Source: Minisyncoccia bacterium (lineage in GTDB: Bacteria > Patescibacteriota > Minisyncoccia > Phycocordibacterales > XYD1-FULL-46-19). Taken from it: a stretch of DNA of 39,935 nucleotides. Under the pieces are notes generated by a model. That model worked only from the letters and a program-made list of their open reading frames with translations. It had not been told where the DNA came from and searched no databases. The position numbers were made by a program, and so were the translations under genes. Below, piece after piece: positions 203-3,624 of the stretch. The stretch covers positions 1-39,935 of the forward strand of contig JBFIHK010000003.1 in NCBI GenBank assembly GCA_041601795.1, given 5' to 3'. How positions within the stretch are numbered: position 1 is the first letter of the stretch; each line of letters starts with the position of its first letter.

Positions 203-234
203 AATAAAAAAACCTCAAGCGAGGTTTTTTTATT
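203..234. terminator. Bidirectional intrinsic terminator between convergent rplT and MBL-hydrolase genes
   Basis: aataaaaaaacctc-aagc-gaggtttttttatt inverted repeat with A/T tails on both sides. Confidence 0.8.
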
Positions 235-1612
235 ACATATCTAGTTTAATGGTTTGACCTGCTTCGGGCACAGATACTTTCAATCCTAAATAATCCCTCA
301 CTCTTTGAGCTAAGAACATAGACGATTTAGGTTCACCTAAAACACAAAATACTTTTTTTAAAGTATCAGCTGAATCTGAAATAAAATCCAACAAATCATC
401 TGAGTCTTTATGGGCCGAATAACCTGAAATTTTTACTACCTTGGCCCTCACAGCTACATCTTCACCCATAATTTTTACATTTTTAGCTCCATCTTGTAAG
501 TAGCGCCCCAAAGAACCATAAACCTGATACCCCACCAAAAGTAAAGTGCTATTAGGGTCTGGTAAATAAGCTTTTTCATGATGTAGAATTCGTCCCCCAT
601 TAGACATACCAGAACCAGCTATAATTATTTTACGTTTCGGAGCATGTCTGATAGCTTTTGACTGATCTGTACTTTTGGTAAATTGAAGTTGAGGAAAATT
701 AAAAATACCGTCACCCTCATTCATACTTAGTCTTACTTCTTTATTAAATAAATGCTTATGTTTTTCATAGACTTTAGTTACCGCAATACCTAGTGGTGAA
801 TCTAAAAATACTGGTACTAGTGGTATTTCTGAGGCCTCCATCATATTTTCTATTTCAAAAAGAAGCTCTTGAGTCCTTTCAACTGAAAAAGCTGGTATCA
901 TTAAGGTTCCACCGGCGGTCATAGTATTTTTAATAGTATCTTTTAAAATCTTTTTTCTATCATCAGCTAATTCATGATTGCGATCACCATATACAGATTC
1001 TGTCACTAAATAATCAATATCAGTAATTTTCTCTGTTGGGCGTAGAAGTGGCGCTGGAGAATTGCCCAAGTCCCCCGTAAACAACAATTTTCTCTTATTA
1101 ATAGTAAACTCAATCATACTAGAGCCTAAGATATGACCAGCGTCTCGAAATACCACCTGTAAGCCATTTAGTTCAATCGGCTGGTGATAATCGACTGTTT
1201 GCCACTCTGCCATTGCTTGAGCGACATCATCCTCATCATAAAGGGGTGGCTTTTGGGTTTTACTTCTTTCTTTTTCCATCACCCCGAGACTATCCAACAT
1301 AATCAGTTCAGCAATATCACGAGTCGGCAAAGTTGAATAAATGGGCCCCGTAAAACCGTCTTTAATTAATTTTCCTATTCGACCAACATGATCTAAATGA
1401 CCATGAGTAATAAACAAAGCTTTAATGGTGGCAGGATCATAAGGAAATTTTTCATAGTTGCAGTCATCACAAACATTACCCCCTTGAATCAAACCGCAGT
1501 CTATTAAATATTTAAAATTTTCATTGTCACCCCCTGTTTGGAGTAAAAAATTAGACCCAGTCACAGTCCCTGCTCCTCCATGAAATGTAATAGCAACATC
1601 AGTAATCATCAT
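233..1612 (-). CDS. MBL-fold beta-CASP ribonuclease (YSH1/TTHA0252-like RNA-processing hydrolase)
   Basis: GGAGTVTGS, LIDCG, THGHLDH, AGHILGS, FTGDLG, ESVYGDR, GSGMSNGGRILHH and SAH motifs. Confidence 0.9.
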   Translation of the reverse strand: MMITDVAITFHGGAGTVTGSNFLLQTGGDNENFKYLIDCGLIQGGNVCDDCNYEKFPYDPATIKALFITHGHLDHVGRIGKLIKDGFTGPIYSTLPTRDIAELIMLDSLGVMEKERSKTQKPPLYDEDDVAQAMAEWQTVDYHQPIELNGLQVVFRDAGHILGSSMIEFTINKRKLLFTGDLGNSPAPLLRPTEKITDIDYLVTESVYGDRNHELADDRKKILKDTIKNTMTAGGTLMIPAFSVERTQELLFEIENMMEASEIPLVPVFLDSPLGIAVTKVYEKHKHLFNKEVRLSMNEGDGIFNFPQLQFTKSTDQSKAIRHAPKRKIIIAGSGMSNGGRILHHEKAYLPDPNSTLLLVGYQVYGSLGRYLQDGAKNVKIMGEDVAVRAKVVKISGYSAHKDSDDLLDFISDSADTLKKVFCVLGEPKSSMFLAQRVRDYLGLKVSVPEAGQTIKLDM

Positions 1613-1621
1613 ATAAATACA

Positions 1622-2104
1622 TTATATACTAGTTTGTTCCACCTCTGGTGTGTCAATGTTGATATTTACTTTTTTAGGCTTCCAATTAAACCAAAAAATT
1701 AAAGCTGCTGTTGTACCACCTAAGGCATCAAAAAATAAGTCACTAAAAGTATCGTTAATAGAAAATTTCAAAAAAGACAATTGCTTGACAGTCAGCTGGG
1801 CTGTCCATAATTCGTCCAAAGTAAACTCAAACAATTCCCAAATCCCCCCTACAGATAGAGCCGAAATTAAAGCCACTAAAAAAACAGTTGAAAAAGAAAA
1901 ATAAAAGCGTAAAAATCTGGGCTTAACAAAAGAAAAATAAAAAATTAAACCCCATAAGGCCACTGACATGCTAGCTAAAAAATGAATAGCTATATCCATA
2001 TAAGAAAGCTTCCAAAACAAAAAATTATGATAAGCAGCAATACTGAAAAAAAATGTTGCTCCCGTTACCGCCAGGGCCACGATATAAATTAAAAATCTTC
2101 CCAT
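1622..2104 (-). CDS. Integral membrane protein (VanZ/DUF2238-like)
   Basis: About 4 hydrophobic segments; D-x-x-x-HF, WE-x-x-EF and DT-x-x-DL-x-x-D-x-x-G motifs. Confidence 0.7.
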   Translation of the reverse strand: MGRFLIYIVALAVTGATFFFSIAAYHNFLFWKLSYMDIAIHFLASMSVALWGLIFYFSFVKPRFLRFYFSFSTVFLVALISALSVGGIWELFEFTLDELWTAQLTVKQLSFLKFSINDTFSDLFFDALGGTTAALIFWFNWKPKKVNINIDTPEVEQTSI

Positions 2105-2151
2105 AGTTTTTTATTGTACCTGAAAAATATTCTTCTCGCTAACTGTTTTTA

Positions 2152-2190
2152 AACAGAAAAAACCATAATAAAATTATGGTTTTTTCTGTT
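2152..2190 (-). terminator. Intrinsic terminator directly downstream of the 6S-like RNA
   Basis: aacagaaaaaaccataat-aaa-attatggttttttctgtt perfect inverted repeat. Confidence 0.8.
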
Positions 2191-2320
2191 AGGCTATCTG
2201 CAAGTATTAAACCCTAGAAGAATAAATTCTACGTGGGTGCCCGCAATCCAAAACCACGGCTCTGAACAATATAAGGCTCCCTAGGGCAAATTTTGATCTA
2301 GATAATACTTCAAATAGCCT
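2191..2320 (-). ncRNA. ssrS: Compact 6S-like RNA (~130 nt)
   Basis: Ends pair (AGGCUAUUUG-AAGUAUUA with UAAUACUU-G-CAGAUAGCCU). Has a central bubble, a GGGAGCCU/GGGCACCC helix as in Firmicutes-type 6S RNAs, a 3'-bubble mini-hairpin and an apical stem. G-U pairs work only on the minus strand. Flanked exactly by a promoter and a terminator. Confidence 0.75.
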
Positions 2321-2326
2321 TCTTTT

Positions 2327-2354
2327 ATTATAGACCTCTATTCTAAATTTGCAA
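2327..2354 (-). promoter_or_regulatory. Sigma70-type promoter of the 6S-like RNA
   Basis: TTGCAA-16 nt-TATAAT on the minus strand; predicted start ~2320 coincides with the first base of the closing stem. Confidence 0.7.
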
Positions 2355-2358
2355 AAAC

Positions 2359-2844
2359 TTAAATATCTCCCCAATCAGTTTCAGATGCATAAACATAAGG
2401 GGCGTCTGGCTTTTGATAATCAAATATCTCAACTGCAGTGAAAAAACGTTTAATTTCTGCCACCGCTGACTCTTCAGAATCAGAAGCATGAACAATATTA
2501 GACTGAGTATTTAAAGAGAAATCGCCTCTAATAGATCCAGCATCAGCTTTAGATCCATCTGTTGGCCCCACCAGTAGCCTAACAGCCGACACAGCGTCTA
2601 TACCAGAAATTACCATTAATATTACTGGTGAAGTTTGCATAAAACGCTTTAACCCAGAAAAAAATGGTTTATCAATATGATGACGATAATGGTCATCTAA
2701 AACATTGTCCTCTATTTTAAGCATTTTCATAGCTCTTATTTGCAAACCTTTTCTTTCAAAACGACTGATAATTTCACCCAGCAAACTCCTCTGTAAGGCA
2801 TCTGGCTTAATAATGACTAAAGTATCTTGATATTTATGTTTCAT
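2359..2844 (-). CDS. ndk: Nucleoside-diphosphate kinase
   Basis: TLVIIKPDA, GEIISRFERKGL, GSIRGDF and catalytic NIVHASD. Confidence 0.97.
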   Translation of the reverse strand: MKHKYQDTLVIIKPDALQRSLLGEIISRFERKGLQIRAMKMLKIEDNVLDDHYRHHIDKPFFSGLKRFMQTSPVILMVISGIDAVSAVRLLVGPTDGSKADAGSIRGDFSLNTQSNIVHASDSEESAVAEIKRFFTAVEIFDYQKPDAPYVYASETDWGDI

Positions 2845-2856
2845 ATTTTTATCTCT

Positions 2857-3624
2857 TTAAGCTAACAAAGATAGTACTTCCACCCCTTTATCTGTCACTG
2901 CTACCGTATGTTCAAAGTGGGCACTTAAACTACCGTCTTTGGTGACAAAAGTATAACCATCGGCCAAAATTTTAGTTTGATCACTCCCTAAAGTAACCAT
3001 AGGTTCAATAGCAATGACTAAACCAGGTTTTAACACCTCACCCTGACCCTTATGGCCATAATTAGGCACTAACGGCTCCTCATGAACCGCATAGCCAACT
3101 CCATGACCAGCTAAATCTCTAACTAAACCTAGACCTTGTTTTTTAATATATGTTTCTACCGCCGACCCAATATCACCAATAGTGGCCCCTGGCTTAACAG
3201 CTTTAATAGCTAGTTTTAGCGACTCTTCAGTAGCTGTAATTAATAATTTGGCCTCGGAAGAAATTTTTCCCACTGGTACTGTAATAGCAGAATCTGTAAT
3301 CAAACCATCATGTTTTAAGCCTAAATCTATAGTCACCAAATCCCCGTCTTGCAAAATCTTGTTTCCAGGAATACCGTGAACTATTTCATCATTAACCGAC
3401 ACACACAAAGCGGCCGGATAAGGCTTTTTAACTCCTGCTGGCTTATAATTCAAAAAAGCTGGCTTGTCACCCAAGTCTTTAATCATTGATTGAGCCAACT
3501 TATCTAAACTGGCAGTCGACACCCCCGGCCTGATCTCATTCTTAATAGTATGCAAAATTTGAGCCAGACGACGCCCCCCTTCTCTTAACTTTATTATATC
3601 GGTTTTAGTTTTTAATCTAATCAC
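2857..3624 (-). CDS. map: Type I methionyl aminopeptidase
   Basis: CVSVNDEIVHGIP, GHGVG...HEEP, AIEPMV, SAHFEHT; follows adk. Confidence 0.97.
   Translation of the reverse strand: MIRLKTKTDIIKLREGGRRLAQILHTIKNEIRPGVSTASLDKLAQSMIKDLGDKPAFLNYKPAGVKKPYPAALCVSVNDEIVHGIPGNKILQDGDLVTIDLGLKHDGLITDSAITVPVGKISSEAKLLITATEESLKLAIKAVKPGATIGDIGSAVETYIKKQGLGLVRDLAGHGVGYAVHEEPLVPNYGHKGQGEVLKPGLVIAIEPMVTLGSDQTKILADGYTFVTKDGSLSAHFEHTVAVTDKGVEVLSLLA

Follow-up and report, generated by a model that had tools for sequence, protein, structure and literature searches.

6S RNA regulates transcription globally. As described in passages of PMC8876501, it binds RNA polymerase holoenzyme carrying the primary sigma factor as a mimic of an open promoter, with the 3' strand of its central bubble acting as a -10-like element and its apical arm holding a -35-like region. 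When the polymerase copies the 5' strand of the bubble and of helix P2 into a product RNA (pRNA), P2 unwinds and release is triggered, aided in E. coli-type 6S RNAs by a hairpin of the 3' bubble strand. Here we analyze a 39,935-nt stretch of DNA (positions 1 to 39,935 of contig JBFIHK010000003.1, assembly GCA_041601795.1; "the window" hereafter) from a Minisyncoccia bacterium of the order Phycocordibacterales in the phylum Patescibacteriota. The minus strand of the window carries a gene for a 130-nt RNA rod that, to judge from its homologies, is very probably the organism's 6S RNA gene (ssrS) in miniature form, and the same homologies suggest a 6S-type function.

Like 6S RNA/SsrS (RF00013; E. 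coli 6S and B. subtilis 6S-1), this RNA consists of a closing stem, a central bubble and an apical stem, and carries on the apical side of the bubble a GGG-A-GCC/GGC-A-CCC helix followed by ACCUGG or ACCUAG. It is likewise present as one copy per genome with what appears to be its own promoter. Unlike 6S RNA/SsrS, it has a closing stem and an apical arm that are both shortened, the apical arm being a single 9-bp stem with a CGUG or CUUG tetraloop, and it falls below the reporting limits of RF00013. Also close in design are engineered minimal 6S-1 RNAs of 78-82 nt such as 6S78 and 6S82cp, in which the bubble is flanked by short arms. Parts of PMC8876501 describe these as laboratory truncations without the -35-like region that bind polymerase with ~tenfold lower affinity and still template pRNA and are released, running the cycle in vitro. 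Unlike them, the RNA of the window is natural, is conserved throughout the order and keeps ~20 bp-equivalents of the upstream arm.

Results

A conserved RNA rod on the minus strand

The 132 nt that begin at position 2320 of the minus strand fold with an energy of -45.2 kcal/mol (z -3.95), which was equaled by none of 200 shuffles. Four helices make up the rod. The closing stem P1 joins both ends through 18 bp, arranged as 10 + 8 bp around one bulged G; P2 extends it up to the central bubble; P3 pairs GGGAGCCU with GGGCACCC around an A-A mismatch; and P4 forms the apical stem-loop. The first-pass annotation had proposed a 130-nt rod with an 18-bp closing stem, a UCUAGA/UCUAGG extension, a helix with an A-A mismatch and an apical stem, all of which we recover. 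It had also drawn an AGAAU/AUUCU mini-hairpin in the bubble, which would leave a 2-nt loop; the only sterically possible version is AGAA/UUCU with the loop UUUA. The minimum-energy fold instead pairs AAAUUU with GAAUUU across the bubble, and this pairing is not conserved in homologues.

A BLAST search of 60 relatives with a 181-nt query returned matches covering the core in 23 other genomes at 69-84% identity, a level that by sequence comparison is far above the conservation of an intergenic spacer. We aligned 25 sequences with MAFFT, without fitting them to any structure (alignment A1). Left out were one locus whose upstream part is cut by a contig end (L013, genome G002) and five short chance matches, mostly to the terminator (L025, L026 and L028-L030). 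Within A1, GGGAG and UGCGG-N-CACCCAC are invariant or nearly so, as is UAUUAUCUAGAU on the 5' strand, and CACCCAC is identical in all 25 sequences. RNAalifold derived 28 pairs from this alignment, 21 of them with compensatory changes; neither P2 nor the inner closing stem was among the 28.

The first-pass annotation had suggested building a covariance model from homologues. Our model, R1, combines the 25 homologues with a hand-written structure of 38 pairs and scores the window's copy at 113.3 bits over 2188-2323. Across the same order it matched 136 of 151 sampled genomes (120 of the 134 of high quality), nearly always with a single, full-length match and with spans of 114-185 nt. A phylum-wide sample gave matches in 51 of 151 genomes.

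We then aligned 66 sequences to R1 (alignment A2; 51 order-level and 15 phylum-level). These came from 64 of 80 loci; the omitted loci were duplicates (L004, L031-L035 and L040), L013, the five chance matches, an unrelated weak match (L063) and two loci found by RF00013 only (L076 and L079). In A2, where fitting to the proposed structure inflates such counts, 91.5% of cells pair and 37 of 38 pairs vary at both of their positions, a result matched by 0 of 500 shuffles; sliding the pairing partners lowers pairing to 39.6-48.5%. Compensatory changes affect 10 of 10 outer pairs of P1 and 8 of 8 modeled pairs of P4, and the variable positions of P3 covary (for example CG in 32, UA in 26 and AU in 4 of the 66 sequences). 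The length of the 5' bubble strand varies from 13 to 19 nt. The minimum-energy fold agrees with A2 on all four helices and with the unfitted A1 on P1, P3 and P4. These results show that the stretch is a real, conserved RNA gene and that its structure is conserved.

Most of the 136 R1-positive genomes of the order hold one copy, and 3-4 give two matches. In these few genomes a second, more divergent copy lies on the same strand, 180-330 nt away from the first: in G067 (L048, 1201-1324 and 1501-1632), in G084 (L037, 1501-1629 and 1956-2083), and also in G118 and G179. This arrangement recalls the 6S-1/6S-2 pairs of Bacillus.

Relationship to 6S RNA

The letters that flank the bubble match 6S RNA. 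RF00013 aligns over its full length with the homologue at L017 (21 bits, E 0.009), and its consensus GGGagccc ... gggcaCCCACCUgga, with one unpaired a per strand, falls on the letters of L017 that are conserved in the family, at top posterior probability. The score is low because ~22 closing-stem and ~30 apical-arm positions of the model are deleted. Beside the bubble the RF00013 consensus reads GGG-a-gcc ... ggc-a-CCC-ACCUgg; the window carries GGGAGCC ... GGCACCCACGUAG, and the near-invariant letters of the family, GGG-A-GNC and GNC-A-CCC-ACCUAG, are the consensus letters. The 3' bubble strand aligns to CCCACCUgga. The earlier description of GGGAGC...GGCACCCAC as a 6S-like motif is borne out by these alignments, and its label as "Firmicutes-type" finds no support.

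The genomic distribution of the two models points the same way. Within 41 relatives from the order, the only two RF00013 matches (E 0.0025 and 0.009) are both located at R1 loci. In the phylum sample RF00013 matched 23 of 151 genomes, 7 of them above its gathering cut-off of 46.4 bits, and 15 of the 23 matches coincide in place and strand with R1 matches. Among these coinciding loci are five of the seven above the cut-off (73.2, 59.4, 58.4, 48.2 and 46.8 bits), and none of the 15 genomes with both kinds of match places them at different loci. Because RF00013 and R1 co-locate in this way, we regard the RNA as homologous to accepted 6S RNAs. The RF00013-passing RNAs of the phylum (for example G321:C17:3838-3995, 73.2 bits, 158 nt) are detected by R1, align with the order-level sequences in A2 and share with the window's RNA a short apical arm and the design of P3 and tetraloop. 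They differ in having a closing stem that is ~13-17 nt longer per strand (~13 in G321) and in their neighboring genes.

Several observations weigh against this assignment. RF00013 has no match in the 39.9-kb window at its gathering score, in 401 nt of the window at E ≤ 10 or in the whole 564-kb genome. Its cut-off is reached by 0 of the 41 relatives, the best scores in the order being 21-23 bits, so the first-pass annotation's expectation that standard models would miss the RNA held. Five genomes with longer R1 matches (172-184 nt) likewise have no RF00013 match on their R1 loci, and a full Rfam scan of 16 homologous loci together returned nothing at E ≤ 0.5 (E scaled by 4227 families and 48 kb). 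Eight of the 23 RF00013 matches in the phylum sample lack an R1 match, among them G232 at 60.2 bits and G281 at 57.7 bits. R1 therefore misses some of the phylum's 6S RNAs and, with 100 of 151 genomes R1-negative, the phylum probably holds further 6S subtypes. The core of 130 nt falls short of the ~160-200 nt quoted for 6S RNA in parts of PMC8414754, in line with the earlier estimate of ~50 nt below the usual size, and the upstream arm may be too short for a full -35-like contact. To these points are added the inflated pair counts of A2 and the sparse covariation of the release hairpin considered below.

The short form is the rule in the order. The 51 order-level matches have a median length of 131 nt, and 46 of them are at most 140 nt long. 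In the longer relatives the extra bases sit in the apical stem, where the P4 region measures 43-70 nt against a median of 22; a return of these relatives to the standard 6S form was rejected, since the added length is an apical insertion. Directly upstream of the rod lies a -10 box, and for this reason the closing stem cannot extend in the 5' direction and the small size is real and not a boundary error.

Transcription unit and gene neighborhood

On the minus strand, a TTGCAA-16-TATAAT pair scored 10/12 in our promoter scan and predicts a transcription start at ~2320, 7 nt downstream of TATAAT, just as the first-pass annotation had it. A promoter match by itself is weak evidence, because the scan found 7 sites in 1.5 kb where 5.1 are expected. 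The -35 element is weakly conserved, with at least 4/6 matches at 23 of the 66 homologous loci. At 48 of the 66 loci and, as read from the rows, at 46 of the 51 order-level loci, a -10 element with at least 5/6 matches keeps a constant spacing to the rod.

Downstream of the rod stands a terminator-like hairpin. The first-pass annotation had a perfect terminator beginning at the next base; the 16-bp inverted repeat is indeed perfect, and it starts 2-3 nt after the rod. The hairpin is AT-rich (-9.2 kcal/mol), and a consensus terminator scan calls no terminator at the locus because only 2 of the 16 bp are G-C pairs. A hairpin plus U run with a dG of -6 or lower follows the RNA at 52 of the 66 homologues. 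In the window the hairpin forms on its own and has no base in common with the rod. The positional conservation of the -10 element and of the terminator-like hairpin across loci indicates that the RNA is a transcription unit of its own, as predicted from sequence. Transcription probably stops in the hairpin and U run around ~2155, which would make a primary transcript of ~166-170 nt.

The candidate 6S RNA is housed in a minus-strand gap of 254 nt between ndk and an open reading frame (ORF) of 160 aa (Table 1). The order methionine aminopeptidase, ndk, 6S-like RNA, small ORF and beta-CASP ribonuclease, which spans 233-3624 in the window, is conserved: within the taxonomic order, ndk lies upstream at 44 of the 51 matches and the ribonuclease follows in the same orientation at 45 of 51, at a distance of 49-132 nt from the RNA at some loci. 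The gene directly downstream varies; relatives of the 160-aa ORF (24-57% identity) hold this place at 27 homologous RNA loci, and the ribonuclease itself at others. The 15 phylum-level homologues retain the RNA and have no ndk, ribonuclease or 160-aa ORF within the flanks. The organism's genome of 564 kb is 98.4% complete and encodes an RpoD-type primary sigma factor (E 1.7e-97).

Table 1. Coordinates of the RNA, its helices and signals, and the adjacent genes in the window
Feature	Position	Strand	Remarks
6S-homologous rod, 130 nt	2191-2320	minus	A2320 pairs with U2191; from fold, model R1 and covariation
P1 closing stem, 5' strand	2303-2320	minus	pairs with 2191-2209
P1 closing stem, 3' strand	2191-2209	minus	G2201 bulged
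P2, 5' strand UCUAGA	2297-2302	minus	within near-invariant GUAUUAUCUAGAUC (2308-2295)
P2, 3' strand UCUAGG	2213-2218	minus	alternative partner: start of 3' bubble strand
Central bubble, 5' strand, 15 nt	2282-2296	minus	variable, A/U-rich
Central bubble, 3' strand, 16 nt	2219-2234	minus	ACGUAGAA... in the window; ACCUAG in most relatives
P3, 5' strand GGG-A-GCCU	2274-2281	minus	from fold, alignment and RF00013 consensus
P3, 3' strand GGGC-A-CCC	2235-2242	minus	from fold, alignment, RF00013 consensus and covariation
Internal loop UAUAUU/UGC	2273-2268/2245-2243	minus	flanks P4
P4 apical stem-loop, 9 bp	2246-2267	minus	tetraloop CGUG at 2258-2255
-35-like hexamer TTGCAA	2349-2354	minus	promoter scan and sequence
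-10 hexamer TATAAT	2327-2332	minus	16 nt after -35; promoter scan
Terminator-like hairpin and U run	2151-2188 (hairpin 2188-2154)	minus	perfect 16-bp inverted repeat, 3-nt loop, then UUU
ndk	2359-2844	minus	Pfam NDK, E 1.7e-49
160-aa ORF	1622-2104	minus	no Pfam match; start ~45 nt past terminator-like hairpin
Methionine aminopeptidase	2857-3624	minus	
beta-CASP/metallo-beta-lactamase ribonuclease	233-1612	minus	

Alternative explanations

A promoter, a structured RNA, a terminator and a gene follow one another on a single strand, an arrangement that would also suit a cis-acting leader, either riboswitch or attenuator, controlling the 160-aa ORF and the beta-CASP ribonuclease through the terminator, and the frequent and sometimes close position of the ribonuclease downstream would fit such a role. 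With no rod bases in the terminator hairpin, however, the two have no alternative pairing to exchange, the gene directly downstream differs among loci, these neighbors are missing from the flanks of the 15 phylum-level homologues although the RNA is retained there, and the RNA is homologous to 6S RNAs that pass RF00013. We rejected the leader on the grounds that downstream genes vary and the terminator folds independently, and we hold it to be very unlikely. A coding function has still less to recommend it: a 55-aa ORF does exist at 2207-2374 on the minus strand, but it has no Pfam match, its start lies upstream of the -10 box, and the homologues differ by compensatory paired changes and loop insertions and deletions, as is typical of an RNA rather than a coding frame. 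It was rejected for its lack of a Pfam match and its RNA-type substitutions, and the chance that the locus encodes this peptide is vanishingly small.

Equally negligible, in our estimate, is a divergent signal recognition particle (SRP) RNA, which as a rod of ~100-130 nt with paired ends would fill an apparently empty slot. Bacterial small SRP RNA (RF00169) is of similar size and shape, and the family has no match in the organism's own genome or the 41 relatives. Yet the same model finds nothing in the 401 nt at E ≤ 10, the apical loop, CGUG/CUUG, differs from that of SRP RNA, and the conserved letters belong to 6S RNA. The proteins of the pathway were not found either: the Ffh M domain (PF02978) has no match in the own genome, in any of the 41 relatives or in any of the 151 genomes of the phylum sample, and in the own genome the SRP54 GTPase domain (PF00448) and TIGR00959 have no match, TIGR00064 gives 11-bit noise only, and no reading frame combines the P-loop and DTAGR GTPase motifs. 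In control genomes, PF02978, PF00448, TIGR00959 and TIGR00064 match 14 of 14, and RF00169 and PF02978 13-14 of 14. SRP RNA was rejected since neither Ffh nor FtsY was found with models that match these controls. A closer competitor, though still an unlikely one, is a 6S descendant with shortened arms that has lost its role as holoenzyme decoy and might bind core polymerase or another protein. In its favor are the 130-nt core, the short upstream arm, a closing stem ~13 nt per strand shorter than that of G321, and the ~tenfold loss of affinity reported for truncated 6S-1 RNAs in parts of PMC8876501. A precedent is Ms1 RNA of Actinobacteria, a 6S-like rod that, as described in parts of PMC9130861, associates with RNA polymerase but has a different polymerase target; Ms1 binds core polymerase and is longer, and by this description we set it apart from the window's RNA. 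Against such repurposing, the most conserved parts of the RNA are those of the 6S cycle (P3 with its A-A mismatch, ACCUAG in the 3' bubble strand, and P2 with the template strand), the alternative hairpin is kept, and a primary sigma factor is present.

The absence of the SRP pathway from our searches is striking in its own right (RF00169 in 0 of 41 relatives; PF02978 in 0 of 41 and, phylum-wide, in 0 of 151). It is probably already known, because parts of PMC8080830 report that two SRP subunits are missing from many bacteria of the Candidate Phyla Radiation.

A proposed minimal form of the 6S cycle

If the locus is the 6S RNA gene of this organism, as we favor, its parts can be placed in the known cycle. 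A sigma-70-type promoter of its own would drive the RNA from ~2320. The predicted rod offers a downstream arm of 24 bp (P1 and P2), a bubble of ~15/16 nt and a short upstream arm made of P3, a small internal loop, the 9-bp stem and its tetraloop. By homology, the RNA would bind RNA polymerase with the primary sigma factor as an open-promoter mimic, and the polymerase would copy the 5' bubble/P2 strand into a short pRNA. The first-pass annotation had placed such sequestration in a host-free state, for which we find no support. By analogy with known 6S RNAs, we infer that the near-invariant GUAUUAUCUAGAUC (2308-2295), the most conserved single strand, is the pRNA template and that the 3' bubble strand is the -10-like element.

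Synthesis of the pRNA would unwind P2 and free its 3' strand CUAGG, which could then form an E. coli-type release hairpin with the CCUAG, or in the window CGUAG, on the 3' side of the bubble. In E. coli-type 6S RNAs, as passages of PMC8876501 have it, a 3'-bubble hairpin of this kind competes with the downstream helix, as is predicted here. When the 3' segment was folded alone, at least 4 of 5 bases of the P2 3' strand entered a hairpin with the 3' bubble in 52 of 66 sequences. On A2, 72.2% of cells pair in the alternative hairpin against 29.9-60.3% in slid controls, and its inner pair, outside P2, has both bases altered in 23 sequences. The five core pairs are nearly invariant, so that their sparse covariation speaks neither for nor against the hairpin; taken with the margin of 72.2% over a slid control of up to 60.3%, it is the point against the 6S assignment referred to above. 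In the window's clade CCUAG has become CGUAG, and the hairpin there is UAGAA/UUCUA.

Within the near-invariant 5' strand, positions 2296-2303 of the minus strand form an 8-nt palindrome, AUCUAGAU. The self-complementary CUAG occurs three times (2296-2303, 2229-2232 and 2214-2217, minus strand), with UAG in the 3' bubble strand of the window. This repetition makes several mutually exclusive pairings possible. With a near-invariant template that includes the palindrome, the three CUAG boxes (5' P2, 3' bubble and 3' P2) can pair in any combination, which could give a three-state switch and a pRNA able to pair with multiple strands.

Because engineered 6S-1 RNAs of 78-82 nt complete the cycle, a natural 6S form of 130 nt is plausible. 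We raise as a possibility, while thinking it more doubtful than not, that the order uses the smallest natural class of 6S RNA, a 130-nt rod that lacks the outer closing stem as well as the greater part of the upstream arm and yet keeps the full cycle of sequestration and pRNA-driven release.

Discussion

What is new here is the shortened 6S subfamily that RF00013 does not see; 6S RNA in the phylum was implicitly known, because some lineages pass RF00013. We found no paper on 6S RNA in these bacteria, in a search that did not cover subscription journals and did not inspect the matches of the Rfam full alignment. The finding exposes a gap in annotation: the form carried by 136 of 151 genomes sampled from a very diverse order goes unseen by the model used in pipelines, with 0 of 41 relatives over its cut-off. 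Including these sequences in the Rfam seed would remedy this.

A natural minimal 6S RNA also shows which parts are retained, namely P3 with its A-A mismatch, the 3' bubble strand, P2 with the template, and a short capped stem. These agree with truncation experiments on B. subtilis 6S-1 described in parts of PMC8876501. That 6S RNA is kept in a 564-kb genome where Ffh, FtsY and SRP RNA were not found suggests that restraint of RNA polymerase matters to these organisms. If the full cycle does run in a 130-nt rod, the RNA would serve as a naturally occurring minimal model of how 6S RNA works, and it would argue that episymbiotic bacteria with genomes of ~0.5 Mb control transcription according to growth state.

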